From Anaerolineae bacterium (GTDB taxonomy: Bacteria > Chloroflexota > Anaerolineae > DRVO01), in assembly GCA_040768685.1 (NCBI GenBank), contig JAXGMM010000001.1:553279-617278 (forward strand): 64,000 nt of DNA, in the 5' to 3' direction. The notes under the pieces were generated by a model, which saw only the letters and a list, made by a program, of their open reading frames with translations, did no database searches and had not been told where the DNA came from. The translations under genes and the position numbers were made by a program. Shown here one piece after another: positions 5,745 to 36,726 of the stretch; within the stretch, counting starts at the first letter, position 1; each line of letters opens with the position of its first letter.

Positions 5745-6737
<993 letters not shown>

Positions 6738-10235: not shown

Positions 10236-10269
10236 GTGACCTCCAGGGTACGGTCGAGCTGGTGGGGCG

Positions 10270-10298
10270 ATTGTACTACCGCGGCGCGAGGGTGACTA
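10270..10298 (-). promoter_or_regulatory. candidate sigma70-type promoter of the sulfatase-like/Gfo operon
   Basis: minus strand reads TAGTCA-17nt-TACAAT about 30 nt upstream of ATG 10235. Confidence 0.35.
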
Positions 10299-10584: not shown

Positions 10585-11379
10585 ATGAGACCGAACCGGC
10601 TGCGTGAACTGCTGGACCAGGACCGGCCCAGCATCGGCACCCACGTCCAGTGCACCTGGCCCGCCATCGTCGAGCTCATCGGCCAGACGGGCATGTACGA
10701 CTACGTGGAACTGGTGGGCGAGTACGCACCTTACGATCTCTACTCCCTGGACAACTTCGGCCGCGCCGTGGACCTCTTCCCCAACTTCAGCGCTATGTTC
10801 AAGGTGGACCAGGAGCCCCGCGGCTACCTGGCGCAGAGGGCCATGGGCGCCGGAATCCAGAACCTCCTCTTCGCCGACATCCGCACGGTCGAGGACGCGC
10901 GCCGGTGCGTAAGCATCGTCCGGGCGGAGTCGCCGCAGACGGGCGGCATCCACGGGGTGCATATGCGCCGGTCGGTGGGGTACGTCCGGGACGTGGGCAA
11001 CGCCGCCTTCGTGCAGTCCCTGGAGGACGCCGTCGTCGCCCTCATGATTGAGAAGAAGGCGGCGGTGGAGAACCTGGAGGAGATACTCGAGGTGAAGGGC
11101 GTGGACATGGTGCAGTTCGGCCCCGCCGACTACTCCATGAGTCTGGGGATCCCCGGCCAGTGGAGCGATCCGCGGGTGTGGGAGGCGCAGAAGTTGACCA
11201 TCGAGACGGCGCTGAAGATGGGCGTGGCGCCGCGCGCGGAGATCGGCTCCGTGGACCAGGCCAAGCGCTTCTTGGACCTGGGCGTGAAGCACTTCTGCAT
11301 CGGCACCGATGTGGTGATCCTGTCGCAGTGGTGGAAGCAGACCGGCGATGACCTGCGCAAGCTGGTCGAGACCGCCTAA
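10585..11379 (+). CDS. HpcH/HpaI family 2-keto-3-deoxy-sugar acid aldolase
   Basis: N-terminus MRPNRLRELLDQDRPSIGTHV and size 264 aa typical of HpcH/HpaI class II aldolases (KDR/KDGlucarate aldolase-like). Confidence 0.8.
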   Translation: MRPNRLRELLDQDRPSIGTHVQCTWPAIVELIGQTGMYDYVELVGEYAPYDLYSLDNFGRAVDLFPNFSAMFKVDQEPRGYLAQRAMGAGIQNLLFADIRTVEDARRCVSIVRAESPQTGGIHGVHMRRSVGYVRDVGNAAFVQSLEDAVVALMIEKKAAVENLEEILEVKGVDMVQFGPADYSMSLGIPGQWSDPRVWEAQKLTIETALKMGVAPRAEIGSVDQAKRFLDLGVKHFCIGTDVVILSQWWKQTGDDLRKLVETA

Positions 11380-11394
11380 GAAGAGGGAGACTAT

Positions 11395-12186
11395 ATGGAC
11401 ATCAACCGCGTATCCTGCTGCTCGTACCCCATGCGCGCCCTGCCGCCGGAGCACTCCTTCCGCGCCCTCAGCGAGGCGGGGTACAAGAAGATCGACCTCT
11501 GGGGCGGCATGCCGCACTTCGACGTGAACAACCCCGAGTATGACTTCGACGCCGTGCTCGCTCTGTCGGAGAAGTACGGCGTGCGGATCGGCAACATCGG
11601 CTCCTACTGCGGCGCGGGCTTCACCAGTGAGGACGAGGCCGAGCGCGAAGCCGAAGTGGTGAAGACGACGAAGGTGCTGGACGCGGCTGCCCGCGCCGGC
11701 GCCCGTTCCGTGCGCAGCGTCCTGGGCCGGCCGGAGTCGCCGGAGCATCTGGCGCGCGTTCTACCCTACTACCAGCGCGTTGCCGAGTACGCTGAGAAGG
11801 TGGGCGTGTACATGGGGGTGGAGAACCACGGCGGCCCGTGCAGCGGCAATCCGCAATTGCTTGCCTGGTTCTTCGACAAGGTGGGCAGTAAGTACACCGG
11901 CGTCCTCTACGAGCCCTGCAACCTGATGTCGGCCGGGGTGGACTACAAGCAGGCCTTCGAGACGATGAAGGACTACATCACCCACATGCACATCAAAGAC
12001 TGCTACCCCATCAACGGCAAGATGCAGACGGTGTGGCTGGGAACCGGCATCATCGACTATCGCTGGGTGGTGGCGGCGCTGGAGGGTGCCGGCTACACCG
12101 GCGACTACCCGATCGAGTACGAGGTAGACGACGAGCCGCCGGAGCAGGGCATCGGCAAGTGGCTCGACATGTGGATGAAGATCTGA
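11395..12186 (+). CDS. sugar phosphate isomerase/epimerase (xylose isomerase-like TIM barrel)
   Basis: AGYKKIDLWGG...VENHGG...HMHIKD motifs of AP_endonuc_2 family; 16 nt after aldolase stop. Confidence 0.8.
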   Translation: MDINRVSCCSYPMRALPPEHSFRALSEAGYKKIDLWGGMPHFDVNNPEYDFDAVLALSEKYGVRIGNIGSYCGAGFTSEDEAEREAEVVKTTKVLDAAARAGARSVRSVLGRPESPEHLARVLPYYQRVAEYAEKVGVYMGVENHGGPCSGNPQLLAWFFDKVGSKYTGVLYEPCNLMSAGVDYKQAFETMKDYITHMHIKDCYPINGKMQTVWLGTGIIDYRWVVAALEGAGYTGDYPIEYEVDDEPPEQGIGKWLDMWMKI

Positions 12187-19964: not shown

Positions 19965-21110
19965 TCACTTGTCCCGCGGTGCGACGTCGACCGCTTCCAG
20001 TGGAACGCCGGCGCGCACAGTCAGAGCGGCCACGAGCCGTCGGTGCAGCACTTCAGGGACGCCCTCACAGTCCTCCAGGGGGAATTCCCCATCCTCCTCG
20101 CGCAGCACGGCGACATCGGCGCAGGCGCCCTCCCGTAGGGTGCCGATCTCGTCCTGCATGCCCAGCATGGCGGCCGGGGCGGCGGTGGACAGCCGCACCA
20201 CCTCGGCGAGGTCCATGCCCAGGTGGAGGAACTTGCTCATCACCGACGTCATACCGAAGGCGGGCCCGTTGATGCTGCCGGTGTGGACGTCGGTGGAGAT
20301 GGAGTCGGGCGGGAAGCCTTGCTCCAATGCGTACCGCGCCACCTGCCAGGAGAAGCTGCCGGCGCCGTGGCCGACGTCGAATAGGACGCCGCGTTCCCGC
20401 GCTTCCCAGGCCTCCGGCCGGACTCTTCCCCCGTGGATGACCAGGCAGCCGGTGCGGCCCTTGTAGGCGTGGGTGATGATGTCGCCCGGGCGCATGATCG
20501 GGAGGATGGCCCAGAGGCCCGGAGGTGGAACGCCGATGTGGCACATGACCGGCAGGTTGACGGCCTCGCCAACCTCGCGCGCGATGCGAACCGGCGTTAG
20601 GTCGTTGGCGCCCACCTGCAGGCCGCTGGCCAGCACCTTGATGCCCTTGATGAGGTCGCGGTTGGCCTGCACCGTGTCGTAAGCGGCGTCGGCGTTGTAG
20701 TGGTGCACGTTCTCGTGCGCGCCGCTATAGGCGGTGAGCCCCGGTGTCGAGATGTTCAGGTAGGGCGCGATGCGAACGGTGGACGGCTCGATGAGGAACC
20801 GCCGGAAGCCGGCGAAGTTGCTCGCCCCGGCAGAGCCGGCGTCCACCCAGGTGGTGGCGCCGCTGCCGGGAGCGTGCTTGTCGGCCTCGAGATTAAGGTA
20901 CCCGGCGCCCCAGTACACGTGGGTATGCATGTCAATGAGGCCGGGCGTCACCAGGCAGCCGGATGCGTCGAAGGTGCGTTCCGCCTCGGCGACGATGGCG
21001 GTGGCCACCCGAGCGATGCGGCCGTCGAAGATGGCGACGTCGGCTCGTTCATTCCGCCCGGTCGACGGGTCAAGGACGCGGCCATTGCGGATAACGAGTT
21101 GATAGCGCAT
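19965..21110 (-). CDS. amidohydrolase family metallo-hydrolase (deacylase/dihydroorotase-like)
   Basis: GLIDMHTHVYWG metal-binding HxH, DVGHGAGSF, 381 aa; paralog of adjacent gene. Confidence 0.75.
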   Translation of the reverse strand: MRYQLVIRNGRVLDPSTGRNERADVAIFDGRIARVATAIVAEAERTFDASGCLVTPGLIDMHTHVYWGAGYLNLEADKHAPGSGATTWVDAGSAGASNFAGFRRFLIEPSTVRIAPYLNISTPGLTAYSGAHENVHHYNADAAYDTVQANRDLIKGIKVLASGLQVGANDLTPVRIAREVGEAVNLPVMCHIGVPPPGLWAILPIMRPGDIITHAYKGRTGCLVIHGGRVRPEAWEARERGVLFDVGHGAGSFSWQVARYALEQGFPPDSISTDVHTGSINGPAFGMTSVMSKFLHLGMDLAEVVRLSTAAPAAMLGMQDEIGTLREGACADVAVLREEDGEFPLEDCEGVPEVLHRRLVAALTVRAGVPLEAVDVAPRDK

Positions 21111-21196: not shown

Positions 21197-22315
21197 CTAG
21201 AGTCGCTCTCCGCTCCGGATGGTGTGCACCGGCACAAGCCTCTCGGTCACGATCTCCGTGACGCCCTCAGTGTCGGTGAGGGGGAAGCGACCGTCTTCTA
21301 AGCGCAGGATGCTCACATCGGCCTCGGCGCCCAAGCGCAGGTGACCCAGGGAGTCTGACATGCCAAGGGCGTGTGCGGGCGCGGTGGTCGCCAGACGCAC
21401 CACTTTGGGCAGCGAGAGGCCCAGGTGGAGGAACTTCGTCATCACCGACGGCAGGCTGATGGCCCCGCGCGCCACGCTGGCGACGTGGAGATCGGTGGAG
21501 ATCACGTCCGGCGGGAAGCCCTGGGCCAGCGCCGCCCGCGCCACGCTCCAGGAGAAGCTGCCCGCCCCATGCGCCACGTCGAAGAGCACCCCGCGCTGCC
21601 GGGCGGCCCACGCTTCGTCGCGCACCCGATCGCCCTCCACCAGCAGACACCCCTTCCGGCCCTTGTAGCAGTGGGTGATGATGTCGCCGCCGCGCATCAG
21701 GGGAAGCATGTCGCCCAGACCGGGCGGGGGCGCGCCGATGTGGCACATCACCGGCAGGCCGGTGGCCTTGCCCGCCTCTAGGGCGGTCCGCAACGGAATG
21801 AGGCCGCTGGGGCCGACGCGCATCGCGCAACTGAGCACTTTGATGCCGCGGATCAGGTCGCGGTTGTCCTCCACGGTGCGCCAGACGGAGTCCACATTCA
21901 GGTGCTCGATGACGCCGTGGACTACCTCCAAGCAGGTGAGGCCGGGCTCGGATATGTTGAGGAAAGGCACGATCCGAGCCCGAGCCGGCTCGATCACGTA
22001 GTGCCGGAAGGCGCGGAAGTTGGCCGATCCGGCACTGCCCGCGTCCACCCAGGTGGTGACGCCGGCCGCGGCCGCGTGGGCGTCGGCGTCGAGGCTCAGG
22101 TCGTCAAGACGGTGCGCTACGTGCGTGTGCAAGTCGACCAGGCCGGGAACGACCAGGCAGCCGGAGGCGTTCAGGCGATTGCTGGCCTCGGCCGCAGAGA
22201 GGTCCGGCGCGATGTCCGCCACCCGACCGTCGACTACAGCCACGTCGGCCACTTCATCGCGCCCTTGAGCCGGGTCGAGGACGCGCCCGCCGGTGATCAG
22301 GAGGTCGTAGCGCAT
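21197..22315 (-). CDS. amidohydrolase family metallo-hydrolase (paralog)
   Basis: MRYDLLITGGRVLDP, GLVDLHTHV, DVAHGAGSFSW; colinear similarity to 19965-21110. Confidence 0.75.
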   Translation of the reverse strand: MRYDLLITGGRVLDPAQGRDEVADVAVVDGRVADIAPDLSAAEASNRLNASGCLVVPGLVDLHTHVAHRLDDLSLDADAHAAAAGVTTWVDAGSAGSANFRAFRHYVIEPARARIVPFLNISEPGLTCLEVVHGVIEHLNVDSVWRTVEDNRDLIRGIKVLSCAMRVGPSGLIPLRTALEAGKATGLPVMCHIGAPPPGLGDMLPLMRGGDIITHCYKGRKGCLLVEGDRVRDEAWAARQRGVLFDVAHGAGSFSWSVARAALAQGFPPDVISTDLHVASVARGAISLPSVMTKFLHLGLSLPKVVRLATTAPAHALGMSDSLGHLRLGAEADVSILRLEDGRFPLTDTEGVTEIVTERLVPVHTIRSGERL

Positions 22316-22342: not shown

Positions 22343-24064
22343 CTAGTCGGCGCCCGCGTCGATGTAGGCGTACTGAAGGATGGGGACCACCATCGATGGG
22401 TGCGGCAGGTCCCTTACGTAAGGCTTGGTCAGCCGGTACTCCACGTCGTGGTAGAGGGGGATCACCGGGGACTCGGCAAGGACGGTCTTCTCCGCTTCCA
22501 GGTAGAGGAGGTGGCGCGTCTCCAGGTCCATCTCCAGCCCTGCCTCGCCGAGGAGCCGGTCCACCTCCGGGTTGGAGTAGCCGCTATGGTTGTCGTAGCT
22601 GGCGCTGTCGAAGAGGACCTTCAGGAAGTTCTCCGGGTCCGGATAGTCGGCGATCCATCCGAGGACGTACATCTGGTAGGGGTGGTGCGGATCGTCCAGG
22701 CCCTCGAGGAAGTCGCGCCAGTCGCTCTGTTCGACCTCCAAGGTGATGCCCAGGTTCTCCTCTAGCGTGACCGCGATCGCCTCGGCCACTGAGTCAGTCT
22801 GGGGGGCGGTGTTCGCCACGTGTAGGGTGATGGTGGGCAGCCGTTCCGCCCCGCCGTAGCTGGACTGCGCCAGCATCTCCAAGGCGGCGGCAGGGTCGTA
22901 CTCGGGGCCGACTATGCCCGCGTTGTCGTAGTGAGGCATGCCCGGAGGGATGATGGTGGAAGCCGCCGGCACGGTGCTCTGGTAGAGCATGTCCACGATC
23001 CGCTGCCGGTCCAGCGCCATGGCGAAGGCCTGCCGCACCTCGGGCTCGTCGAAGGGGGCGGTGTCGCAGCGCAGGCCGACGTAGAAAGTGGCCAACTGAT
23101 CGATGATCGACAACTCGTCGTTCAGGCCCTGCTCGGGATCGGTGATTCGAGGCAGGTTGCTGATGCCGACGCCGGTCACATCAAGCTCGCCGTTCTCGTA
23201 CATGGTGACGCCCTCGCCCCCGCCCAGCATGAACACCACCCGGTCGAGCGCCGGCTGGGGGTCGCGGTAGTAGTTGCGGTTGGCGAGCAGGGTGATCTGG
23301 GAGCCCGGCACCACCTCGCCCAGCCTGAAGGGTCCGGTGCCGTTGAAGCGCTCCAGGACGTCTTTCGAGTCCAGCGACCGGCGGTCGACGACGAAGGCGA
23401 CCGGGTGCGACAGCTTGGCCAGGAAGGAGGGACGCGGGGCGTCGATCTCTATCTCGAGAGTGTAGTCGTCCAAAACTCGGACGCCCTCAAGGTGATCGGC
23501 GTCGCCCGCGAGCATGGCCTGGGCGCCGACGATGTCGCCCAAGTAGGTGGAAGCGATGGGCGAACCGGTGGCAGGGTCGCACGAGCGCTCAAGGGAGAAC
23601 CGGAAGTCCTCGGCGGTTACGGGCGTGCCGTCATGGAAGACGACATTGGTGCGCAGGTGGAAGGTGTAGACGGTACCGTCCTCGCTGACCTGATAGGACT
23701 CGGCGATGTCAGGCGTCAGCGCCAGGTCGGCGCCGGCGGTGACGAGACCGCTGTAGATCTCGACGATGTACTGGGCTGAGGTGCTGTCCTGGCTCATGGC
23801 CGGGTCGAGCGTGGGGGGCATGGAGCCCGGGAGGCGGAGTTCGCCGCCGATGGGACGGCCGTCCGTGGTGAAGGCGCCGGGCGTCGGGCCGGGGACGGCT
23901 CGCGTCGCGATGACGCCGGTGGCACGCATCTCGAGGCCATCGTAGGACAACTCACCCGGGCGGATCGACATGAGGGTAAGGCCGGCGCAGCCGCCGCAAA
24001 GAACCAGGCAGCCGCACGCGAGGGCAATCACGAGCAGAATCACGATCGGCGAACGTTTTCCCAT
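22343..24064 (-). CDS. ABC transporter substrate-binding protein, family 5, lipoprotein
   Basis: signal peptide with LACGC lipobox; SBP_bac_5 length; start ATG 24064 has AAGGGAG SD (alternative 24088). Confidence 0.8.
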   Translation of the reverse strand: MGKRSPIVILLVIALACGCLVLCGGCAGLTLMSIRPGELSYDGLEMRATGVIATRAVPGPTPGAFTTDGRPIGGELRLPGSMPPTLDPAMSQDSTSAQYIVEIYSGLVTAGADLALTPDIAESYQVSEDGTVYTFHLRTNVVFHDGTPVTAEDFRFSLERSCDPATGSPIASTYLGDIVGAQAMLAGDADHLEGVRVLDDYTLEIEIDAPRPSFLAKLSHPVAFVVDRRSLDSKDVLERFNGTGPFRLGEVVPGSQITLLANRNYYRDPQPALDRVVFMLGGGEGVTMYENGELDVTGVGISNLPRITDPEQGLNDELSIIDQLATFYVGLRCDTAPFDEPEVRQAFAMALDRQRIVDMLYQSTVPAASTIIPPGMPHYDNAGIVGPEYDPAAALEMLAQSSYGGAERLPTITLHVANTAPQTDSVAEAIAVTLEENLGITLEVEQSDWRDFLEGLDDPHHPYQMYVLGWIADYPDPENFLKVLFDSASYDNHSGYSNPEVDRLLGEAGLEMDLETRHLLYLEAEKTVLAESPVIPLYHDVEYRLTKPYVRDLPHPSMVVPILQYAYIDAGAD

Positions 24065-24233
24065 CAAGAACGCGGCTCCCTTAACCATCGGGTCTGTACG
24101 GATTCATGAGGCAACGGGCGTCATTCTATGGGCCGTTCCCGGCAACGGCAAAGCCCGGCCCCTCTTGATTCGGCGTGACGGTCCGGCTACACTCGACTCC
24201 AACGATGATGAATGATCAACTGAGGGCCGAGCC

Positions 24234-25083: not shown

Positions 25084-25827
25084 CTAACCGGGCCGGGTGC
25101 GGTGGAAGTCCACCTGATACCAGCAGGCCTTGGCGCCCTCCGGGTGCCGCACCTCCACCACGGGCGAGATCTGGTTGCCCAAGGAGTCCACCACCACGAC
25201 GTAGTAAGTGGCGGCGCCGGTACCGAGGATCACGTCGTAGTAGCCGGCGTCCGGCGGTTGCTTGGTGATGGTGGGGAAGTTGTGATTCCACGGGTCGTAG
25301 ACCCTCAGTTGCACCCCCGGCAACGGCTGGCCCCCTTCGTCGCGCACGTATCCGAACACCGCGCCCACGAAGCATCCCCGCTCCTCCACGCCGACGGGCG
25401 CCGCCGCTACGTACAAGTAGGCCGACCGGGTAGGCGTCGGCGAAGGCGAGGCAGTTGCGGTCGGGCCGGTCGGTGTGACGGAGGGCGTAGCCGGGTTGCT
25501 GGGCGCTCCGCCAGGGGGCGGGGTAGCCGCCGATGGCGGTGGGTACGTCGGTGCTTCGGCGGTGGGCGCGGGCGCCTGCGTCGGCACGGGAAGGGTGGGC
25601 CAGGGTGTCTGTACTGCCACTGCCCCGCCGGGCAGAGTGGGCGAGGGTGTGATCAGCCGGGCCTGCACGCTCGCGTAGGTCGGCGTCGGCGAGACAAGGC
25701 GCTCCAGCACCGCCAAGGGCTCGATAGGCCCTATGCGGACGCTGCTCGCGACCACGTAACCGACCGCGACGGCGGCCCCAATGACGACCAGGAAGAGCAG
25801 TCCGTACAGCGGGTTGCTTCGCCTCAA
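25084..25827 (-). CDS. membrane-anchored protein with Pro/Thr-rich linker and C-terminal carboxypeptidase-regulatory-like beta-sandwich
   Basis: N-terminal TM LYGLLFLVVIGAAVAVGYVV; PTPT/APAPTAEAPTYPPP linker; C-terminal GGQPLPGVQLRVYDP...YYVVVVDSLGN. Confidence 0.55.
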   Translation of the reverse strand: MRRSNPLYGLLFLVVIGAAVAVGYVVASSVRIGPIEPLAVLERLVSPTPTYASVQARLITPSPTLPGGAVAVQTPWPTLPVPTQAPAPTAEAPTYPPPSAATPPPGGAPSNPATPSVTPTGPTATASPSPTPTRSAYLYVAAAPVGVEERGCFVGAVFGYVRDEGGQPLPGVQLRVYDPWNHNFPTITKQPPDAGYYDVILGTGAATYYVVVVDSLGNQISPVVEVRHPEGAKACWYQVDFHRTRPG

Positions 25828-25862
25828 CGGGGACCCCTTCCGCCGGGCCTGCCGGCTGCTTG

Positions 25863-25892
25863 TTGCCGCTGGGTTGCGCGGCTACCTATAAT
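25863..25892 (+). promoter_or_regulatory. sigma70-type promoter, leaderless configuration
   Basis: TTGCCG-18nt-TATAAT ending 6 nt before ATG 25899. Confidence 0.5.
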
Positions 25893-25898
25893 CGCCGC

Positions 25899-28250
25899 AT
25901 GTCGGCCCACAGCACCATAATAAAGACGGCCTCCAGCCCTCGCCAGTTCCACATTCGTGGGCCGGTGCAGGCTGTGGCCCTGGCGGCAGTGGCGGTGGCC
26001 GCCGTGGCGCTGCGGTTCGGCGGCCTCAGCCGGCAAAGCCTGTGGGCCGACGAGGGTAACTCCTGGGGCATGGCCATTCGGTCGCTGGGCGAGATCGGCC
26101 CGGCGGCGGCGGGCGACATCCACCCCCCGTTGTACTACTACCTACTGAATCTCTGGTGCCGGCTCTTCGGGACCTCCGAGGCCGGCATGCGGTCGCTCTC
26201 GGCCCTGTTCGGCTGCCTCACGGTACTGGTCATCTACCTGTGGGCGCGGCGGATAGCGGGAGACTGGGCCGGAGTGGGGGCCGGGGTGCTGGCCGCTATC
26301 TCGCCGTTCGCCGTCTACTACTCGCAGGAAGCGCGCGCCTATGCGCTAGTCGCCCTCCTCACCGCCGTCGGATGCTGGACGCTCACGGAGTGCTTTCTTG
26401 CTCACGGCGAGGGGCGCCGGTGCCGCCGCTGGATGGTCGGCCACGTGCTGGCGACCGCCGGTCTCCTCTGGTCGCACTACCTGGGACTCGTGGTTCTGGT
26501 TCTGTACAACCTGGTGGCGGCTGCGTGGCTCTGGGGTCGGCTGGACCGGAGCGTGCGGCTGAAGGAATGGGCAGCGATGCAACTGGCGGCCGTCATCGTC
26601 TTCGTGCCTTGGCTGCCGCAGATGCTCGGGAGCGCCGGTTCCTGGCCGGCCATCAGCGCCCACGAGCCCCTGAGCTTCTATCTCTCGGAGCTGGCCCGCC
26701 TGTACACCTTGGGGCCGGGCGCGGAGGGCATGACGCGATGGGCTTGGCTGGCCCTAGCGCCGGCGGCCGTGGGCGTCGTAGCGGGGATGATGCGGGGACG
26801 TCACCGCCTTCTGTGGTCGCTGGTGATCCTGGCGGCGCTATGGCCTGCCCTGGCTCTGTGGTTGCTTTCGTTTCTCCGTCCTGCCTACCGCGCAAAGTTC
26901 CTGCTGCTCGGCCTTCCCGCCTATCATGTGTTGGCGGGTGCGGGGATGGCCGGGCCGGCGCTGTGGTCCGGGCGGCGCCGGGGCTGGGCTCTAGGTCTCC
27001 TGGTAGGTGCGGCGCTGGGAGCCCTGGCGTTTCCCGCCTCATGTAGCGGGCTCACCGGCTACCTTAGCGGTCGCCAGTCGGTGAAGGACGACTACCGAGG
27101 CCTGGCAGCGTACATCACCGCCGCGGCCGGATCGGACGGGGCGGTGGTGGTCAACGCGCCCGGCCAGATGGAGGTCTTCTCTTACTACTACCGCGGCGAG
27201 GCTCCCCTCTACGCCCTGCCGAGCAGTCGGCCGCCCGACGCCGCCACGCTGGAAGGGGAACTGGCCGCGATCGCCGCGGGCCATCCGCGCATCTTCTCGG
27301 TCATCTGGGCCACCGCGGAGAGTGATCCCGAAGGCGTCATGGAGCGGTGGCTTGACGCCCACGCCTACAAGGCATCGGACGTCTGGTTCGGCAACGTGCG
27401 CCTCACGCTCCATGAGACGCCCTCGTCCATGCCGCGGGAGCGTGAGACCCACGCCATCTTCGGCGACATCATCGCTCTCGAGTCGTATGCTCTGTCTGAG
27501 GCCGGCGTTCGTCCGGGGACGGCGGCGCCGGTGAGCCTGGTGTGGCGCCGCAGCGGCGTGGTAGCCGACGAGTACGCGCTGTTTGTTCAGGTCCTGGACG
27601 AGCGCAGCAACATCGTGGGCCAACGAGACGCGGCTCTCTCGGAGCGGCGGTCTGTGGCCGAGTGGCTTCCCGACGAAGAGATCGACGACAAGCAGGCGGT
27701 GCCCATCATGCTGGGGACGCCGCCGGGCGCCTACGCAGTGGTGGCGGGGTTATACAGCTTGACGACGGGCGCACGCTTGACGTTGCCCGACGGCAGCGAC
27801 CGGATGCAGTTGGGCACGGTGGAGGTGCTGCCCACGCAGGTGCTATCAGCCGGCGCGTTGCGAGCCACGCAGACTCAGGAGGTCGGGCTGGGCCCGCTGA
27901 GGCTGATGGCCTGGGATGTCTCGCCGCTGGGAGGCGCGCCGGGCGTGCAGGTGGAGACGGCGGCCGGTGCGCCGTTGTCGCTGGTGTTCTACTGGCGTGT
28001 CCTGGAGCCGGCAGAGGCACAGATGGAGTTCCTGCTCGACGCGGGCGGCCAGAGCCGACCCATCGGGCAGGTTCCGGCGCTCTCTCAGGCTCTGGCCCTG
28101 GGGCGGTGGGAAGTGGGGCAGACCTACCGCGATCCCCACATCGTGTTCCTTCCCGGCGACCTACAACCCGGCGAGTACCGGCTGTCGGTGGTGGCCAACG
28201 CGGGCGGCGGTCAGGGCCAGGTGGACCTGGGCCGCGTCCTGATCCGCTGA
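25899..28250 (+). CDS. GT-C fold glycosyltransferase, family 39/ArnT/PMT-like, with C-terminal duplicated beta-rich domain
   Basis: LWADEGNSW, HPPLYYYLL motifs of GT39/GT83 N-terminal loop; about 12 TM then about 330-aa soluble region containing two related domains (VSLVWRR...; LSLVFYWRV...). Confidence 0.75.
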   Translation: MSAHSTIIKTASSPRQFHIRGPVQAVALAAVAVAAVALRFGGLSRQSLWADEGNSWGMAIRSLGEIGPAAAGDIHPPLYYYLLNLWCRLFGTSEAGMRSLSALFGCLTVLVIYLWARRIAGDWAGVGAGVLAAISPFAVYYSQEARAYALVALLTAVGCWTLTECFLAHGEGRRCRRWMVGHVLATAGLLWSHYLGLVVLVLYNLVAAAWLWGRLDRSVRLKEWAAMQLAAVIVFVPWLPQMLGSAGSWPAISAHEPLSFYLSELARLYTLGPGAEGMTRWAWLALAPAAVGVVAGMMRGRHRLLWSLVILAALWPALALWLLSFLRPAYRAKFLLLGLPAYHVLAGAGMAGPALWSGRRRGWALGLLVGAALGALAFPASCSGLTGYLSGRQSVKDDYRGLAAYITAAAGSDGAVVVNAPGQMEVFSYYYRGEAPLYALPSSRPPDAATLEGELAAIAAGHPRIFSVIWATAESDPEGVMERWLDAHAYKASDVWFGNVRLTLHETPSSMPRERETHAIFGDIIALESYALSEAGVRPGTAAPVSLVWRRSGVVADEYALFVQVLDERSNIVGQRDAALSERRSVAEWLPDEEIDDKQAVPIMLGTPPGAYAVVAGLYSLTTGARLTLPDGSDRMQLGTVEVLPTQVLSAGALRATQTQEVGLGPLRLMAWDVSPLGGAPGVQVETAAGAPLSLVFYWRVLEPAEAQMEFLLDAGGQSRPIGQVPALSQALALGRWEVGQTYRDPHIVFLPGDLQPGEYRLSVVANAGGGQGQVDLGRVLIR

Positions 28251-28254
28251 TGGG

Positions 28255-28614
28255 TCAGGCGTTACGGCGGAAGAGGGTCTCGCTCGGGCCCACGGAGGGC
28301 TCGCTCTGGCCGGGCGGCAGTCGCATGGCGATGATCACTGCTCCGCGGTGGGCGGCCTGGAGGCGGTCGAGTTCCTGCTGGGTAGGCGCGGTGAAGGTGG
28401 CCACCCAGACCCGGAGGGCAGTCGGGTCGCCGCTAGTGTCCACGCTGACATAGCGGACCTCCGGACGGGTCAGGCACGCGGCTAGAACTTCGGTCGTCAC
28501 GGAGACGGCACTTTCGGACCGGCGCAGATCGGCTGGTGAGGTCGTCTCCCAACCGGAAGGGAACCGGTCCGCCAGAGAAGCAGGCTCGGCAGCGGATGGA
28601 TGATCGCCGGACAT
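28255..28614 (-). CDS. hypothetical protein (weak call)
   Basis: 120-codon ORF from ATG 28614; C-terminal half non-repetitive (VSVDTSGDPTALRVWVATFTAPTQQELDRLQAAHRGAVIIAM); no recognisable domain. Confidence 0.25.
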   Translation of the reverse strand: MSGDHPSAAEPASLADRFPSGWETTSPADLRRSESAVSVTTEVLAACLTRPEVRYVSVDTSGDPTALRVWVATFTAPTQQELDRLQAAHRGAVIIAMRLPPGQSEPSVGPSETLFRRNA

Positions 28615-28811
28615 AGCGGATGCTCCGAGTTGAGCGTGATGCCTTGCCGATCGAACGGTGCTATCGTAAGGCTTAGGCGCTTCGGGGAACAGCGCGGCCG
28701 GTGTATGCGTCTGCACAGAGGGAGTGGACGGCCGGATCGGATCGCCGGTGAGCGAGTCCGGCCTTGGCGTGAGGATGCTCTCACAAGGGCGGCAAGGACG
28801 CAGGTGGAACG

Positions 28812-29819
28812 GTGAACTCGCGGATAGAAGAAGAGAACGGCAACACCTGGATTCTGGTACTGGCGTTGGTGGCGGCCCTGGCATTGGTGGTCGCGTTTGT
28901 CATCCTACCTGCTCTCCGCAGGCAACCACCGCCGGCTCCGGCTACAGCTGTGGCCACTCTGGCGGCGGCGCCGGCACAAACCGGCCCGTCCCTGCGGGTG
29001 CAGGAGCACAGCGCCGGCGGCTTCGCCATCCTGGGCGAGGGCTGGCCGCGCGACGCCGCCGTCACGCTGCTGATCACCTCCAATCGGGGCGCGTCCGACT
29101 ATTGGCTCGGCCGGCTCCTGGCCGACTCGAATGGAGCCTTCCGGCGAGACGTTGCCTGGCGCAATGACTATCCAACCGGCGCGGGCGTCGAACTGGTGGC
29201 TCGCACGAGCGAGTTCGAGGTCAGGGCGCCGTTCGAGCTGCGCTCGGGCAGCCTCGATCCAGCTGTTCCTACCGCGACCGGCACCGCCGCACCCGGTGAC
29301 GCGACCGCGACTGCCACGCCGACCGTCACACCGACTGCGCTGCCGTCTCCGACGGCGTCGCCCACCGCCACGGTGACGCCAACTGCGACTCCCAGCCCGA
29401 GCCCGACGCCGCCGGCGACCCCGGCTGTGTTCTTCGGCTGGAAGGGGGAGTACTTCAACAACACCGATGTGAGCGGTGCTCCGGCGGTGGTCCGCGACGA
29501 CGAGATGATCGCCTTCGACTGGGGACAGGCCTACCCACTGCCCGGCGTGGGCGTGGACAACTTCAGCGTCCGCTGGACCAGGGAACTGGAGCTGCCGGCG
29601 GGCACCTACCGCTTCACATTGCGCGCCGATGACGGGGTGCGGCTGTGGGTGAATGAGGCGCTGCTGATCGACCGGTGGACGGCGGGGTATGCGACCACAG
29701 AGAGCGTGGTGCAACTGCCGGCCGGGGTGCACACGGTGCGAGTGGAGTACTTCGAGGCGACGGGCGAAGCACGGGTCTTTCTGGAGTGGGGCAGCGTGCT
29801 GTCGCTGCCGGCCCAGTAG
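28812..29819 (+). CDS. membrane-anchored protein with Pro/Thr/Ala linker and C-terminal PA14 domain
   Basis: N-terminal TM WILVLALVAALALVVAFVILPAL; linker TATGTAAPGDATATATPTVTPTALPSPTASPT; PA14 signature FFGWKGEYFNNTDVSGAP...DNFSVRWTRELELPAGTYRF...DGVRLWVNEALLIDRW. Confidence 0.7.
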   Translation: MNSRIEEENGNTWILVLALVAALALVVAFVILPALRRQPPPAPATAVATLAAAPAQTGPSLRVQEHSAGGFAILGEGWPRDAAVTLLITSNRGASDYWLGRLLADSNGAFRRDVAWRNDYPTGAGVELVARTSEFEVRAPFELRSGSLDPAVPTATGTAAPGDATATATPTVTPTALPSPTASPTATVTPTATPSPSPTPPATPAVFFGWKGEYFNNTDVSGAPAVVRDDEMIAFDWGQAYPLPGVGVDNFSVRWTRELELPAGTYRFTLRADDGVRLWVNEALLIDRWTAGYATTESVVQLPAGVHTVRVEYFEATGEARVFLEWGSVLSLPAQ

Positions 29820-29824: not shown

Positions 29825-30160
29825 TCAGGGCGTTGGGGCCTCTGCCAGGCGGTAGAGCCACCAGCGCGATTTGCCGCGCCGCTGCTGCCTGTCGCAGTAG
29901 ATGACCATCCGTTGGCCGGCGGTGGTGCGCAGGTCAAGATAGTGCCGCCGCACATACGTCTCACCGTCGGCGCGCCCACCCTCGCGGGCGGTGCCTTTCC
30001 AGCGATCCAGTACCGCCGCTACTTCGTAGGCCTCCCCACGCCAGAGGAAACGCATGGGCACGCCCGGCTCGCCCAGCGGCATCCCCGCCAGATCGATCCG
30101 GTCGCGATCCGGGAAGATGGGCTCACTTACGAGACGCCACTTGGGTTCCTGCCCGCTCAT
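29825..30160 (-). CDS. small conserved hypothetical protein, translationally coupled to SDR
   Basis: 111 aa, ATGA overlap with upstream SDR stop; non-repetitive sequence FLWRGEAYEVAAVLDRW...YVRRHYLDLRTTAGQRMVIYCDRQ. Confidence 0.5.
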   Translation of the reverse strand: MSGQEPKWRLVSEPIFPDRDRIDLAGMPLGEPGVPMRFLWRGEAYEVAAVLDRWKGTAREGGRADGETYVRRHYLDLRTTAGQRMVIYCDRQQRRGKSRWWLYRLAEAPTP

Positions 30161-31395
30161 GTCTGTAGCCTCTCCAGGAGCTCGGACAGGGAGTCGATGA
30201 CGGCGACTCGCTCCGCGCTTTGCTCAGAGACGTAGCGGAGGCCTTCCTCGTCGCGCGAGAGACGAGAACACTCCTCGGGCGCCTCGGCGTAGTACCGGCG
30301 GAGGGTCTGCAAGCCCTCCAGCACGCCGGCGTGCTCGCGCTTGCCGCGGTCCTGCCCGGAGATGAGCATGCGATCGGCCCGGCGCAGGCGTCCTTGGAGG
30401 TCAGTGAGCAGGCGCGCCCAGTACTCCGGGTCCTGGCCCGTCCTGCGGCGGAAGCCGCGCTTGGCCAGGGGCCGCGCCAGCACGGGCGCGCGGTCTAGCT
30501 CGGTCACGGTGTGGTCGAGGATGGCCTGTAGGCGGGCGGTGAGGCGTTGCGCTTCCCCGATGAGTTCGGAGCGGGTGCGGAAGTCGCTGACCGGATGGGC
30601 CGGGGCGGGGATCTCCGAGCCGGGTTCGGGGGGCGCCTCCTCGGCCGCAACCCGGTCCAGAACGGTCTGGCCGGTCACAACCTGTCCGTGGTACTCGATG
30701 CTGTAGCGACCGATGAGATGCACGGCGGCTGCGGCGGCCCGATCGGCGGGGACGGCCGGCTCCATGAACTGCGTGAGCGTAAGGCCCAGGCGGGGCGCGA
30801 GGACGCGACCCGTCTCCCGCAGGCCGGGTGTGTCGACAATCCCCGGGTCAAAGGCGACCACGCAGATCCCCTGCTCGCCTACCTCGGCGGCCAGGGACTG
30901 AGTTAGCCCCAGCAGCCCTTGCTTGGAGGCGATGTAGGCGGACGCAAAGGGCATAGCAGCGCCGCTGACTAGGTTCACGATGATGCCGGAGCCACGCTCC
31001 AGCATGCCGGGCAGGAAGGCGCGGCACATCAGGTAGGGGCCGCGCAGGTTCATCGCCAGGGCGCGGTCCCACTCGCCGGGGTCCATCTCCACCACGGACG
31101 CTACCGGCCAGACTCCGGCTCCGTTCACCAGAACGTGAGGAGCGCCGACGTATGCCGTCACCTCGCGAGCCAGGCGCTCTACGCTGTAGGGATTGGCCAC
31201 ATCTGCGCGCACCTGCCTGGGTCGCGCGGGGACGTCCGCTTGGTCCGGCTCGTCGCCCTCGGGGAAGGCGCTGTCCACGGCCACCACCGTGGCCCCCCGG
31301 AGCGCCAGCGCTCCGGCCAAGGCGCGTCCGATGCCTTCCCCGGCGCCGGTGACCAGGACGCTCCGGCCCTCAAGGTCCATCTCCACTTCCGACAT
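30157..31395 (-). CDS. SDR family oxidoreductase with about 160-aa C-terminal helical extension
   Basis: VLVTGAGEGIGRALA Rossmann motif, YxxxK region; extension rich in Arg/Glu/Leu with no recognisable domain. Confidence 0.75.
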   Translation of the reverse strand: MSEVEMDLEGRSVLVTGAGEGIGRALAGALALRGATVVAVDSAFPEGDEPDQADVPARPRQVRADVANPYSVERLAREVTAYVGAPHVLVNGAGVWPVASVVEMDPGEWDRALAMNLRGPYLMCRAFLPGMLERGSGIIVNLVSGAAMPFASAYIASKQGLLGLTQSLAAEVGEQGICVVAFDPGIVDTPGLRETGRVLAPRLGLTLTQFMEPAVPADRAAAAAVHLIGRYSIEYHGQVVTGQTVLDRVAAEEAPPEPGSEIPAPAHPVSDFRTRSELIGEAQRLTARLQAILDHTVTELDRAPVLARPLAKRGFRRRTGQDPEYWARLLTDLQGRLRRADRMLISGQDRGKREHAGVLEGLQTLRRYYAEAPEECSRLSRDEEGLRYVSEQSAERVAVIDSLSELLERLQT

Positions 31396-31477: not shown

Positions 31478-32974
31478 CTACTTGAACGCGGCAGCGAACT
31501 CGCGGGTAAGCTGAAGATAGAGATCGCCATACTGGGCGCTCGGCTCGACATAAGTCCCCTCCACCCACTCATTCCAGCTTTGCACCAGCAGCCAGTCTGG
31601 GCCGCTGGCCGCAGCGGCGTCGTAGGTGGCGCGATAGAACGAGCCGGAGTCGCGCTCTCGCCGCTGGGCGGCCGAAGGAACGCGGGCGTCGGACCGGCAG
31701 CCGGCGCGGGTGTCGTCGTAGCCGGGCGAGATGGTGCCGACCCAGAGCTTAGGGCTGCCATACGTCGCCTCGGCGGCCCGCACCGACTCCGCCCAACGGC
31801 CGGCCTTGGCATAGCAGGCGGGATCGGTGGCGTGGGTGATCTTGTAGACGTAGAGGCCATCGAAGACCGAGAGGTAGGACGGATCAAGGCCCTCGACGAT
31901 CCACCAGGTCTGCCGCTGGGGGTCCACGCGATCGCGGATGGCCCGCCAGGCCTCGACAGGGCTGCCGCCGGGCACGCGCTGCATGTCCGCGAAGAAGATG
32001 ACCGGCTTACCATCCAGACGCAGGAAGTTGGGGTGTCCGCCGTACGTGCCGATGAGGTAGGAGAGCGCCTCAACCAGGCTGTCCTGCGATGGGCCGGGCG
32101 AGCCGTGCCACAGGTGGCGCAGGAAGACAACCGAGGACTGGAAGCCGGTGCCGCCCGATTGGGCCAGCAACTGGGCCATGTTGGCGTCGGTGCGTTCTCC
32201 GGGCGCGAACCAGTGGAGCAGGAAGCCGTCGATGCCGGCGCCAAGGGCCTGCTGGACATGGCGGCCGATGGCGGCCGGGTCGTCGGAGCCGTAGGGCTCG
32301 GCCGGCCGGTCGCCGCCGCTGATGTTGCAGTCGTCCCAGCCGTCCGCGTCGTACCAGGCCAGATAGGAGGCCAGCACCAGGCGGGGAACCTGCGGGTGGG
32401 CGGCGGCCGCCGGCTCTACGGGCGGCGCGGCCTCTGGCGCAGGCGCTTCGGCTTCAGGCGCGGGCGCCACGGTAGGCTCGGGAGTGGCGTCGGCTTGGGC
32501 CACGGTCTCGGGCGCGGAAGTGCGCAAGGCGGCCGCGGCTTCGGCGGTGGCGGAAGCCGCGGCCGCCGCGGCCGTCGCCTCAGCGAGGCTCTGCGCGGTG
32601 GCTTCCTGCCTCAGACGGGCCTCGGCGGTGTAACGGGCTACGGTAGTAGCGGCTTGGGTGACCCGAGCGGCGGTGGTGGCGCCGGCCTGGGCTACCTGGG
32701 TCGCGCGGAAGCCGGCGGCGGCTGCTGTTTCCGTGGCCGGTAGGTCGGCGGTCGGCGACGGAGTGGCGGTGGGCTCCGGCGGAACCGTTGCCGGGGCGAT
32801 GACGGTCGCGCCCGCCGTCGCAGCGGCGGTGGCGAGCGAAGCCGAGGGCGGCGTCACTACCGGCGCGGACGACAGCAATGAAAGCAGCACGAGGCTCATC
32901 CCGAACACGCTAGCGGTGAGCAGCCCCGAGGCGGGCGAGTGAGTTCGGTCTGTCGGCGTCTGCGGGCCGGACAT
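31478..32974 (-). CDS. secreted/membrane-anchored glycoside hydrolase, GH99-like, with Ala/Pro/Glu/Thr low-complexity linker
   Basis: N-terminal signal anchor; linker PEPTVAPAPEAEAPAPEAAPP; catalytic-domain blocks ASYLAWYDADGWD and LLVQSWNEWVEGTYVEP (E-x-x-E pair as in GH99 endo-alpha-mannosidases). Confidence 0.55.
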   Translation of the reverse strand: MSGPQTPTDRTHSPASGLLTASVFGMSLVLLSLLSSAPVVTPPSASLATAAATAGATVIAPATVPPEPTATPSPTADLPATETAAAAGFRATQVAQAGATTAARVTQAATTVARYTAEARLRQEATAQSLAEATAAAAAASATAEAAAALRTSAPETVAQADATPEPTVAPAPEAEAPAPEAAPPVEPAAAAHPQVPRLVLASYLAWYDADGWDDCNISGGDRPAEPYGSDDPAAIGRHVQQALGAGIDGFLLHWFAPGERTDANMAQLLAQSGGTGFQSSVVFLRHLWHGSPGPSQDSLVEALSYLIGTYGGHPNFLRLDGKPVIFFADMQRVPGGSPVEAWRAIRDRVDPQRQTWWIVEGLDPSYLSVFDGLYVYKITHATDPACYAKAGRWAESVRAAEATYGSPKLWVGTISPGYDDTRAGCRSDARVPSAAQRRERDSGSFYRATYDAAAASGPDWLLVQSWNEWVEGTYVEPSAQYGDLYLQLTREFAAAFK

Positions 32975-33114: not shown

Positions 33115-33224
33115 GGTCTCCAAGAGCGAGACCACTGCTCCCTTTCCCCAGGAAGGAAGGGGCCGGAGAGACCGATTCCGTTTCCCCCTTCCCGCGTAGG
33201 GAAGGGGGCTAGGGGGTTGGGTTC
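33115..33224. repeat. GC-rich hairpin repeat element (copy B)
   Basis: GGTCTC-caagagc-GAGACC, then CCCCCTTCCC-gcgta-GGGAAGGGGG CTAGGGGGTTGGGTTC; near-identical to 36538-36726. Confidence 0.6.
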
Positions 33225-33383: not shown

Positions 33384-33427
33384 CGGGTCTGTACCGTATG
33401 CGGCTCATACTGGGTAGGAGGCATCAC

Positions 33428-34132
33428 ATGGATCTCGGCAAGTCATTCACCTTCATGTTCGAAGACAAAGACTGGGTGGGCAAGATCCTCATAGGGGCGC
33501 TCTTCGCGCTGCTCAGCTTCGCGCTCGTGGGCGTTCCGTTCATCGTGGGGTATGTCCTGGAGTTGGTGCGCCGGGTGGCGGCCGGGCGAGACGACGTCCT
33601 CCCCGCCTGGGACGACCTAGGCGACAAGTTCGTCCAGGGGCTGGTCCTGCTGGTGATACTGTTCGTGTTCATGCTGCCGGCGACGCTTCTCAGCGGTTGT
33701 GTAGGCGCCTTCCTGGGCACGATGGCCGACACCGTGCGGAGCGACGCGGGGGCAACGATGTTCGGGCTGGGCTCAGGGCTCGTCGGGCTGCTGGCGGCGG
33801 CTTACGGGTTTGTTATCTGTCTGCTCACGCCTGCCATCGCTATCCGCTATGCGATGACGCGCGATTTCGGCGCCTCGTTCAACCTGGGCCAGATCTGGCG
33901 CATCGCGAGCGCCAACCTCGGCAACTACATCGTCGTGCTTCTCGTGACCTGGGTGGCCGGGCTGATCTCCGGCTTCGGAGTGATCGCCTGCCTCATCGGC
34001 GTGTTCGTGACCTACTTCTGGGCCATGCTGGTCCAGGGGCACCTCTACGGTCAGTACTGGCGCGAGCACCTCGCGGACGCGGCTCCGGCGCCCGCCGAGA
34101 CCACTCTCCCCAGCGAGCCGCTGAGCTTCTAG
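33428..34132 (+). CDS. DUF4013-like polytopic membrane protein
   Basis: MDLGKSFTFMFEDKDWVGKILIGALFALLSF...GYVLELVRRVAAG pattern and 4-6 TM helices; start at internal ATG with strong SD. Confidence 0.6.
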   Translation: MDLGKSFTFMFEDKDWVGKILIGALFALLSFALVGVPFIVGYVLELVRRVAAGRDDVLPAWDDLGDKFVQGLVLLVILFVFMLPATLLSGCVGAFLGTMADTVRSDAGATMFGLGSGLVGLLAAAYGFVICLLTPAIAIRYAMTRDFGASFNLGQIWRIASANLGNYIVVLLVTWVAGLISGFGVIACLIGVFVTYFWAMLVQGHLYGQYWREHLADAAPAPAETTLPSEPLSF

Positions 34133-34157
34133 CGATCGTATCGCATTACCACCCACA

Positions 34158-34192
34158 GGGGGCGAGCCTCTCCGGTTCGCCCCCTCTCTGTT
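34158..34192 (+). terminator. rho-independent terminator
   Basis: GGGGGCGA-11nt loop-TCGCCCCC then TCTCTGTTG. Confidence 0.55.
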
Positions 34193-34426
34193 GCCCATGT
34201 CCCAATGCCGGCCGATCACGGAAAGCGCATCCGCCAGGCGGCGCCGGCCGGCGGCATTCGCTCTCGCCGTGACGGACGGGAGTGTCCGTCGATGACGAGC
34301 GCGGAACGGCGCATCTCGGCAGCAGCGCCTGGGCTCAGGCCTCCTCGAAGGGGATTGTGGCGCTCCGGCGCCAGACCGTCGCTGACCGCCAAGGGTTCGC
34401 ATCGGCTTCGCCGGGGCGGGGTTCTA

Positions 34427-34455
34427 TTGTGTGAGTCGCCGCCATTGTCTACTAT
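34427..34455 (+). promoter_or_regulatory. candidate promoter, leaderless configuration
   Basis: TTGTGT-17nt-TACTAT ending 6 nt before ATG 34462. Confidence 0.4.
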
Positions 34456-34461
34456 GGGGCC

Positions 34462-35046
34462 ATGGACGACGCTAGCGACAGTGCCGACCGCGACGAAATG
34501 CAGGCGATGGAGGCGGCGAAGACCGACCCGCAAGCCTTCGGAGCCCTGTACGAACGTTTCGTGGGGCGCATCTACAACTACGTGTACTACCGGGTGGGCA
34601 ACCGGTACGACGCCGAGGACCTGACGGCCCGGACGTTCCAGCGGGCGCTGGCCAACGTGGCCGGCTTTGAGGCGCGGGGCGTGCCGATATCGGCCTGGTT
34701 CTACCGGATCGCTCACAACCTGGTGGCCAACTTCTACCGCGATCGGTCGCGCCGGCAGACCATACCGCTGGAGAGCCTGGTAAGCCAGCGAGCCGACCTG
34801 GAGTCTGCCGCAACGGCGGCGGAGCGCAACGAGCGGTCGGAGGCCCTGCTGCAAGCGATCCGGCGGCTGCCGGACGATAGACAGCAGTTGTTGCTGCTCA
34901 AGTTCAACGAGCACCTGTCGAATGCCGAGATAGGACAGGCGATGGGGAAGACCGAGAGTGCGGTCAAGTCCCTTTACCATCGCACTTTGATCGCCTTGCG
35001 GCGCGAACTGGAAGACAGCGGTTTCGCGCCCAATGATGGGGACTAG
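34462..35046 (+). CDS. RNA polymerase sigma-70 factor, ECF subfamily
   Basis: region 2 RIYNYVYYRVGNRYDAEDLTARTF and region 4 HTH LSNAEIGQAMGKTESAVKSLYHRTL. Confidence 0.85.
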   Translation: MDDASDSADRDEMQAMEAAKTDPQAFGALYERFVGRIYNYVYYRVGNRYDAEDLTARTFQRALANVAGFEARGVPISAWFYRIAHNLVANFYRDRSRRQTIPLESLVSQRADLESAATAAERNERSEALLQAIRRLPDDRQQLLLLKFNEHLSNAEIGQAMGKTESAVKSLYHRTLIALRRELEDSGFAPNDGD

Positions 35047-35067
35047 GGGGGTCCTGGAGGCGTCCTT

Positions 35068-35475
35068 ATGAGGGTATGGAGCGCAGTCGACGACAGGGAA
35101 AGGTTCGCGGAGAGGAGAGAGTCGAACCTGCTGGACGAGCACTCTCAGCTTCTGATCGCGGGCCGCACGAGCGAGGCAAGGTCCATGCAGCATGCTCAGG
35201 CCGATGACTTGGCCGCCCTAATGGCCTTGGCGGAGCAAGTGTCGCTGGCAGTGGCGCCGGTGGCGGCCGGTGAGGAGTCTCTGGCGCGCATTCGACGGTT
35301 GGTAGACCGCGCCTGGAGCGAGGTCGGCCTGGAACGGGTGGCGGCCTCGGTGCGCATGCCGGGTAGAAACACCGTGCTGCGGGCGGCCATCGTGGGGACG
35401 GCGGCGGTCTCGTTGGGGCGGTTCGCCCTGAACTACCACCGCAAGCGGCAAGAGCAGGTCACAACTACGAACTGA
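35068..35475 (+). CDS. putative anti-sigma factor (single TM near C-terminus)
   Basis: immediately downstream of ECF sigma, 135 aa, hydrophobic segment VLRAAIVGTAAVSLGRFAL. Confidence 0.4.
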   Translation: MRVWSAVDDRERFAERRESNLLDEHSQLLIAGRTSEARSMQHAQADDLAALMALAEQVSLAVAPVAAGEESLARIRRLVDRAWSEVGLERVAASVRMPGRNTVLRAAIVGTAAVSLGRFALNYHRKRQEQVTTTN

Positions 35476-36537: not shown

Positions 36538-36726
36538 TCTCAAAGAGCGAAACTACCGCTCCCCTTCCCCAACAAGGGAGGGGGTCCGGAAGCCGCGCCG
36601 GTGCCGCAGAGGCCAATTCCGGTTCCCCCTTCCCGCGCAGGGAAGAGTCGGGCTGGGCCTTCGTGCCACTGTACAGTCCCCGGTTCCCCCTTCCGCGTCG
36701 GGAAGGGGGCTAGGGGGTTAGGTCAG
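36538..36726. repeat. GC-rich hairpin repeat element (copy C, internally duplicated)
   Basis: GGTCTCAAAGAGCGAAACTACCGCTCCCCTTCCCC...; two units CCGGTTCCCCCTTCCCGCGCAGGGAAG and CCGGTTCCCCCTTCCGCGTCGGGAAGGGGGCTAGGGGGTTAGGTCA. Confidence 0.6.

Follow-up and report, generated by a model that had tools for sequence, protein, structure and literature searches.

A stretch of 64,000 nucleotides from the genome of an Anaerolineae bacterium (Chloroflexota; contig JAXGMM010000001.1, positions 553,279 to 617,278; GC content ~67%), which we refer to as the window, encodes a glycosyltransferase (GT) of the GT-C fold that is divergently paired with a gene, here called gene A, for a small membrane-anchored protein with a long Pro/Thr-rich (PT) linker. 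This pair is conserved among distant relatives, and genes for proteins with PT linkers or with a C-terminal domain like that of gene A are enriched beside members of the same GT family. We tentatively favour, with rather less than even confidence, the reading that the GT O-glycosylates envelope proteins tethered to the membrane, at Ser and Thr residues of their PT linkers, and that gene A encodes a dedicated and co-inherited target. The interval 25084-29819 holds four genes, not three. They are given below together with the intergenic region between gene A and the GT and the three genes that follow the interval.

25084-25827, minus strand: gene A, 247 aa, predicted signal-anchor transmembrane (TM) helix, P/T/S/A-rich linker and C-terminal Cys-bracketed beta-sandwich
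25828-25898, no strand: divergent intergenic region of 71 bp between gene A and the GT
25899-28250, plus strand: GT-C fold glycosyltransferase, 783 aa as deposited (P0001)
28255-28611, minus strand: small conserved open reading frame (ORF) of ~118 aa, convergent with the GT
28812-29819, plus strand: gene C, 335 aa, TM anchor, domain of ~90 aa, PT linker and PA14 domain
29825-30160, minus strand: DUF6504 gene (Pfam)
30157-31395, minus strand: short-chain dehydrogenase (SDR), 412 aa (Pfam)
31478-32974, minus strand: membrane-anchored GH99-like protein with an Ala/Thr/Pro-rich spacer (Pfam Glyco_hydro_99)

Gene A is directly adjacent to the GT on the opposite strand, at a distance of 32-71 bp from the GT start. 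An ATG at position 25899 fits the deposited 783-aa protein, and the ORF could be extended to a TTG at 25860. A sigma-70-like site (TTGCCG-18-TATAAT, 25863-25892, plus strand, 10/12 match), identified by consensus match only (one found versus 0.3 expected), ends 6 nt before the ATG of the GT and would therefore give a leaderless or near-leaderless mRNA. As judged from the sequence, a compact divergent control region would be common to the GT and gene A. Gene C is located 561 bp downstream of the GT, with the small minus-strand ORF in the gap. The statement of a preliminary description of this DNA that both linker genes directly flank the GT consequently applies to gene A and not to gene C. Based on a crude gene call over the whole window, which mis-framed the region around 39996-44389, genes A and C are the only ones among ~55 that encode a 30-aa stretch with at least 60% P+T+S, and both are within two genes of the GT. 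The presence of such linkers is therefore a real observation and no compositional commonplace. Tandem Repeats Finder detected no DNA repeats beneath the linkers of A and C, which argues against their being expansion artefacts.

The divergent arrangement of gene A and the GT was found in all eight distinct lineages that were compared after removal of near-duplicates, the window included, with GT identities of 46-66%. An orthologue of gene A lies immediately upstream of the GT and on the opposite strand on contigs with GT identities of 66, 61, 58, 48, 48 and 47%, and a metagenome scan from the side of gene A revealed a divergent GT in each of the five contigs with enough sequence and an A-domain identity of at least 62%. 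Outer flanking genes vary: genes for a substrate-binding protein (SBP) or a lactamase are present in some loci, and genes for NAD synthase, a response regulator, a deformylase or Usp/ArsB in others. Across this clade the folded domain of A is 62-90% identical compared to 46-66% for the GT; the linker is only 33-52% identical, yet its composition is retained. According to the preliminary description, linker genes that are not conserved neighbours of the GT would speak against the proposal; gene A passed this test in every lineage. As the pairing persists across distant relatives, gene A is a credible but unproven glycosylation target. Of the two flanking proteins put forward earlier as O-glycosylation candidates, A is thus in part backed by the conserved pairing, and C is not.

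A scan of one genome per GTDB species yielded at least 575 GT relatives. We kept the best 80 loci, all from Chloroflexota and with GT identities of 33-47%, and neighbourhood statistics were based on 87 non-redundant Chloroflexota loci. PT-linker genes account for 39 of the 305 genes located at most two positions from the GT and for 12 of the 468 genes at least four positions away (odds ratio (OR) 5.6, p = 5e-8), and the enrichment is also seen among genes with an N-terminal hydrophobic segment only (37 of 114 near versus 11 of 96 far; OR 3.7, p = 3e-4), with p-values that are optimistic and overstate independence because the loci share ancestry. Without the close clade the OR is 4.9. In the 39 loci with full coverage, a PT-linker gene is present at positions ±1-2 in 24 and at positions ±4-5 in four. 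An iterative profile search detected an A-like domain in 27 of the 39 PT-linker neighbours. At GT identities of 33-40%, the enriched PT-linker neighbours are TM proteins or lipoproteins, and most of them have an A-like C-terminus. A-like genes occur within two positions of the GT in 27 of the 87 loci and none was found at +3 to +6; in the wider family their position (-2 or +1) and number vary, and some loci have two or three of them.

The usual gene order in the wider family begins with a protein that has massive PT linkers and is either a lipoprotein or a TM protein; it continues with a GH5-like protein, the GT and a convergent gene for a protein with a TM segment and a PT linker. The GH5-like protein (~570-620 aa; examples are L009:5313-7025 and the loci L010, L011, L018, L020 and L047) contains NEP and EVGW motifs, a CE2_N-like beta-sandwich and TM helices at both ends. 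It is 43-90% identical across the wider family and often better conserved than the GT. At the C-terminus of the PT-linker neighbours there is usually a Cys-bracketed domain akin to that of gene A. Many of these neighbours also contain LysM or LysM/SH3b-like sequence; the former was a Pfam match in L009, and the latter was read by eye.

Gene A starts with TTG, and its orthologues keep TTG or GTG. The encoded protein contains one hydrophobic segment (residues 4-33; AlphaFold helix 6-29), followed by a linker of 92 aa (residues 44-135) with 26 P, 17 T, 9 S, 14 A and three charged residues, which is disordered in the AlphaFold prediction. The C-terminal domain (~136-247, ~110 aa) is predicted to form a seven-strand beta-sandwich. 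It had been described as carboxypeptidase-regulatory-like, but the match to CarboxypepD_reg (PF13620) is below threshold (E = 0.019, 15.7 bits versus a cut-off of 32.3), and Foldseek with the single-sequence model returned generic Ig-like matches (filamin, YEATS) and no PDB match at E ≤ 1e-3. This label is therefore unconfirmed, and the model justifies no term more specific than 'Ig-like beta-sandwich'. The TM anchor, the PT-rich linker and the beta-sandwich of the same description agree with our data.

No Pfam family covers the A-like domain. A word-indexed homologue search with the C-terminal domain retrieved two proteins only, and an exhaustive HMMER search against 1.84 billion representatives yielded 195 cluster representatives at E ≤ 1e-3. 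The matches are mostly proteins of 220-280 aa with the domain at the extreme C-terminus. All 30 family members that were fetched combine an N-terminal TM segment, a P/T/S/A-rich linker (43-72%) and the C-terminal domain, and two Cys residues ~84 residues apart are present in 29 of them.

The GT matches the Pfam family PMT_2 (PF13231; E = 7e-15, above the gathering score) with an N-terminal module of multiple TM segments and has a GT-C fold. Besides PMT_2 only a sub-threshold match to STT3 was found, and the window protein does not match PMT (PF02366), which appears in a few homologues as a weak precomputed match only. The score against the NCBIfam Pmt equivalog NF058602 is 30.8 bits versus a cut-off of 800 and is limited to residues 81-156, and the score against the NCBIfam ArnT equivalog is 15 bits versus a cut-off of 567. 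No significant sequence relatives were detected in the PDB, either with the single sequence or with a 30-sequence profile. The assignment of the enzyme to the protein O-mannosyltransferases (Pmt) of family GT39 in the preliminary description is consequently not demonstrable, and 'GT39-like' is acceptable for the fold and not for family membership.

An AlphaFold model based on a 30-sequence alignment (predicted local distance difference test (pLDDT) 87.6; predicted template modelling score (pTM) 0.84) shows a membrane core of many helices, which leads into an alpha/beta region and then into tandem beta-sandwiches; the latter two parts, residues ~400-783, are predicted to be extracytoplasmic and have no match in Pfam. 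The first outer loop contains a DIHPPLYYY motif and a SLWADEGNS motif, in which D51-E52 is invariant in 30 sequences with identities to the window protein down to 34%. This acidic Asp-Glu pair is a catalytic signature common to ArnT- and PMT-type enzymes; because it occurs in ArnT-type enzymes too, it does not discriminate for GT39/PMT membership. The GT-C(A) fold is superimposable on solved PMTs and equally close to Pmt4, AglB, ALG12 and ArnT. In view of the PMT_2 match, the model and the acidic motif, the protein is a GT-C(A) enzyme, and its donor should be linked to a lipid phosphate and used on the outer side of the membrane. Lipid A or cell-wall polysaccharide, and not protein, is the acceptor of ArnT (GT83) and of the mycobacterial arabinosyltransferases AftA, AftD and EmbC, none of which is known to be encoded next to PT-linker proteins.

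Two further tandem genes for GT-C-like proteins with multiple TM segments are located at 39996-42476 and 42287-44389, both on the minus strand. The downstream member matches the hidden Markov model of the GT family (E = 3e-34). The upstream member (700 aa) has no Pfam match and a similar C-terminal beta-sandwich-type sequence. Together with the central GT, the window thus encodes three GT-C-type enzymes.

GT-C enzymes that glycosylate Ser/Thr/Pro-rich linkers are already known, and several precedents make linker glycosylation by the window GT plausible. The best of them for an enzyme encoded beside its PT-linker substrate is, by analogy, Cbes_1864 of Caldicellulosiruptor bescii (CAZy GT39), the deletion of which abolishes glycosylation of secreted proteins with alternating Thr/Pro linkers and which is encoded close to the substrate gene celA (PMC6151902). 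Like the window GT, it is a GT-C enzyme outside Actinobacteria. As described, with 556 aa, it does not contain the long C-terminal beta-sandwich region of the window GT. Furthermore, its substrates are secreted multidomain cellulases, whereas gene A encodes a small membrane-tethered protein. The streptococcal systems GtrB/PgtC2 (YfhO family) and Pgf (PgfS/PgfM1/PgfM2) follow the same logic as proposed here for gene A: in membrane-associated proteins, a GT-C enzyme attaches the sugar of an undecaprenyl-phosphate-linked donor to disordered, Ser/Thr-rich stretches that adjoin folded domains outside the cytoplasm (PMC11092751). They differ in that the GT-C belongs to the YfhO family and not to PMT_2, in that the acceptor regions are poly-Ser/Thr and not Pro/Thr-rich, and in that a GT-A partner (GtrB or PgfS) is needed, none of which was seen in this window. 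In Chloroflexota, one archaellin shows Thr-linked densities that were read as probable Thr O-glycosylation by an unidentified enzyme (PMC12488501).

The actinobacterial Pmt (GT39; Rv1002c of M. tuberculosis and Pmt of S. coelicolor) was the parallel originally drawn. It occurs in another phylum, and the window GT differs from it in having no PF02366 match, in an additional C-terminal part of ~380 aa with tandem beta-sandwiches, and in that no Ppm1-like GT2 gene lies near it within the Pfam-scanned genes of the window. All relatives of the genes in the window belong to Chloroflexota, mostly to metagenome-assembled genomes of Anaerolineae, which rules out an actinobacterial framing. The parallel is one of analogy only.

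The domain architectures, the fold, the conserved pairing of gene A with the GT and the enrichment of PT-linker and A-like genes beside its family are shown; any glycosylation, as well as its donor, sugar and acceptor, is inferred. The acceptor would most likely be Ser/Thr in Pro/Thr-rich linkers that are long and disordered and belong to envelope proteins tethered to the membrane. Gene A would then encode the dedicated, co-inherited and possibly co-regulated target of the GT. Glycosylation could stiffen its linker of ~90 residues, shield it from proteases and hold the small disulfide-bracketed beta-sandwich off the membrane. Any modification of the gene C product and of the GH99-like protein would reflect their membership of a wider substrate pool and not their proximity to the GT. 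If this is correct, the principle known from Pmt, Cbes_1864 and PgtC2 would reach another phylum with a distinct enzyme architecture. The envelope of Chloroflexota is poorly understood, and the GT (25899-28250) and gene A (25084-25827) provide a testable candidate enzyme-substrate pair for the protein O-glycosylation glimpsed so far on an archaellin. New, beyond the principle itself, are a Chloroflexota-wide and uncharacterised GT-C family with a distinct C-terminal architecture, present in at least 575 genome stretches, and an unannotated A-like protein family that is recurrently linked to it, most of the GT family also having a GH5-like partner. Together they form a recurring module of a PT-linker protein, a GH5-like protein, the GT-C and a PT-linker/LysM protein. 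It may even be speculated that the PMT_2/GT-C family provides the general protein O-glycosyltransferase that has long been missing in Chloroflexota and that A-type proteins are dedicated, heavily glycosylated, mucin-like envelope spacers, which co-evolve with the enzyme and, with the GH5-like partner, build a glycoprotein layer in the atypical envelope of this phylum; we consider this far-reaching version unlikely.

Several observations weigh against linker glycosylation. The association is seen in only 27-35 of the 87 loci (a third to 40%). In 54 loci of the wider family, the membrane-anchored GH5-like gene lies immediately upstream of the GT and abuts or overlaps its start, and GT2 and Bac_transf genes adjoin the GT in L009 and L010, a pattern expected more of loci for polysaccharide assembly. 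Foldseek ranks ArnT first among the matches of the GT, and AftA is also high; ArnT and ALG12 are at most 1.5 Z units from Pmt4, and the modelled fold does not separate protein from lipid or glycan acceptors. The main rival reading, which has real support and is somewhat less likely than the favoured one, is that the GT builds an envelope glycan instead of a protein glycan: like ArnT, AftA, AftD and EmbC, it would transfer sugar to a wall polysaccharide or a lipid-linked glycan, and the PT-linker proteins would be its wall-associated partners in one envelope module. LysM/SH3b-type domains, as in the PT-linker neighbours described above, would then bind peptidoglycan, the A-like beta-sandwich would bind or organise glycan, and the linkers would simply span the wall as spacers. 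In line with this, the block of the window includes the GH99-like gene, and the C-terminal beta-sandwiches of the GT resemble carbohydrate-binding domains. However, the GH5-like partner is missing from the clade of the window itself, in which only gene A is constant, the recurrent neighbours share a long PT linker and an A-like domain, as expected of a substrate class, and in structure the GT is no further from the protein-acting enzymes Pmt4 and AglB than from ArnT. If the GT does build a wall glycan, the locus would mark an unknown envelope polymer pathway. The two readings are also compatible, as the linkers could carry the glycan. A three-component system for extracytoplasmic glycosylation would pair the GT-C with a flippase and a GT-A polyprenyl-phosphate-sugar synthase of the GT2 type (GtrB/Ppm1/DPM1-like). 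Pfam detected no such synthase among the scanned genes of the 64-kb window, which were all but those of an ABC-transporter block (~12.6-19.8 kb) and some small ORFs; this too counts against the favoured reading at first sight, yet the synthase gene could lie in another part of the genome, and its absence from the window neither supports nor refutes any model.

The one-to-one divergent pairing in all eight lineages of the clade, the stronger constraint on the folded domain of A than on the enzyme and the two conserved Cys residues that bracket this domain would also be expected if A were an accessory subunit or adaptor of the GT-C, with a beta-sandwich that docks on the periplasmic domain and tunes stability or acceptor choice and a linker that provides reach. 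We regard this as very unlikely. Remoter A-like genes (38-66% identity) were found in metagenome loci away from any GT, for instance in L099 between obg-like and nadD-like genes. They count against linker glycosylation, and they also argue against an obligatory subunit and fit a dispersed substrate class. The variable number and position of A-like genes in the wider family and the fusion of A-like domains to LysM and SH3b likewise fit a protein class better than a fixed subunit. Inherited synteny without a functional tie, given that PT linkers are common in secreted proteins of Anaerolineae, is an unlikely explanation for the association as a whole. It probably accounts for gene C, which adjoins the GT in close relatives only and together with unrelated genes, and proteins that combine PA14 and PT linkers are abundant in Anaerolineae; moreover, the loci analysed are not phylogenetically independent. 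On the other hand, the A-GT pair outlasts all other synteny, the enrichment persists within exported proteins and outside the close clade, and such linkers are confined to two of the ~55 genes in the window, both near the GT.

The architecture proposed earlier for gene C was borne out by hydrophobicity, composition and Pfam. The protein, which is identical to the deposited protein P0272, contains a TM segment (residues 8-38), a domain of ~90 aa without a Pfam match, a linker of 61 aa (residues 146-206) with 15 P, 17 T and 5 S, and a PA14 domain (PF07691; residues 209-328, E = 4e-22, 79 bits versus a cut-off of 24). Its role as a conserved neighbour of the GT fails beyond close relatives. Gene C is located beside the GT only in L001-L005 and L092, where the GT identity is at least 58%, and travels there in a block with the DUF6504 and SDR genes, which have no evident tie to glycosylation. 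It was not found in the loci with 46-48% GT identity that retain gene A, and it is not next to the GT in L103 or L104. The orthologue in L103 (1678-3141, 47% identity) shares the layout of TM segment, N-terminal domain and PT linker, contains two PA14 domains parted by a second PT linker and is encoded between genes for glutaminyl-tRNA synthetase and a URO-D protein, with no GT-C nearby. Another relative of gene C adjoins an SBP gene. Full-length orthologues were found only at 56-84% identity, in addition to the form with two PA14 domains at 47%, and Anaerolineae contain a great many proteins that combine PA14 with PT linkers (323 matches). The position of gene C is therefore best explained by inherited synteny, and it is probably a mere neighbour. 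For its product to be a possible substrate, the GT would have to be a general linker glycosylase.

The small ORF between the GT and gene C (28255-28611) corresponds in position to called genes of 106-133 aa in L001, L003 and L004, and it is also present in L092. These counterparts are 27-42% identical to the window protein, with W21, R67, W69, L81-D82 and Q85-A86 invariant. Neither a TM segment nor a Pfam match was detected in this protein.

Downstream of the SDR gene, the GH99-like protein (PF16317; E = 1.2e-20, 74.3 bits versus a cut-off of 33) contains a TM segment (residues 15-42) and a spacer (residues ~40-195) with 37% Ala and 32% P+T+S. Its sequence includes WNEWVEGT, which may correspond to the catalytic E-x-x-E motif, and it is a candidate glycan-processing enzyme on the basis of these matches. 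The gene is present in L001/L002 and L004/L005 and replaced in L003.

The region of the tandem GT-C-like genes has a GC content of 0.71 and a strong AT skew. Two tandem copies (41469-41648; 93% identical) of a GC-rich element of ~89 bp that forms a hairpin are inserted in frame within the second GT-C ORF and encode PNPLAPFPEKEGGGEAPLSPWERGRGRGLPH twice. The core of the element, CCCCTTCCC...GGGAAGGGG, recurs in intergenic regions at 33198-33218, 36700-36722 and 8793-8819. From its sequence, the element looks like a palindromic repeat of the repetitive extragenic palindrome (REP) or miniature inverted-repeat transposable element (MITE) type that is tolerated within coding sequence.

Further upstream in the window, the region 2447-12186 contains genes for two sulfatases, a sulfotransferase-family protein, two GFO/IDH/MocA oxidoreductases, two xylose-isomerase-like TIM-barrel proteins and an HpcH/HpaI aldolase. 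This cluster is suggestive of the utilisation of sulfated glycans. Tandem paralogous amidohydrolase-type genes are located at 19965-21110 and 21197-22315 (both on the minus strand; 381 and 372 aa) alongside a gene for an SBP_bac_5 lipoprotein (22343-24088), and L001 and L003 contain one amidohydrolase copy only. Just past the GH99-like gene, the region 33398-35475 encodes a DUF4013 membrane protein, a sigma factor of the extracytoplasmic function type (34462-35046) and a small ORF (35068-35475) with a C-terminal hydrophobic segment, which is a possible anti-sigma factor.

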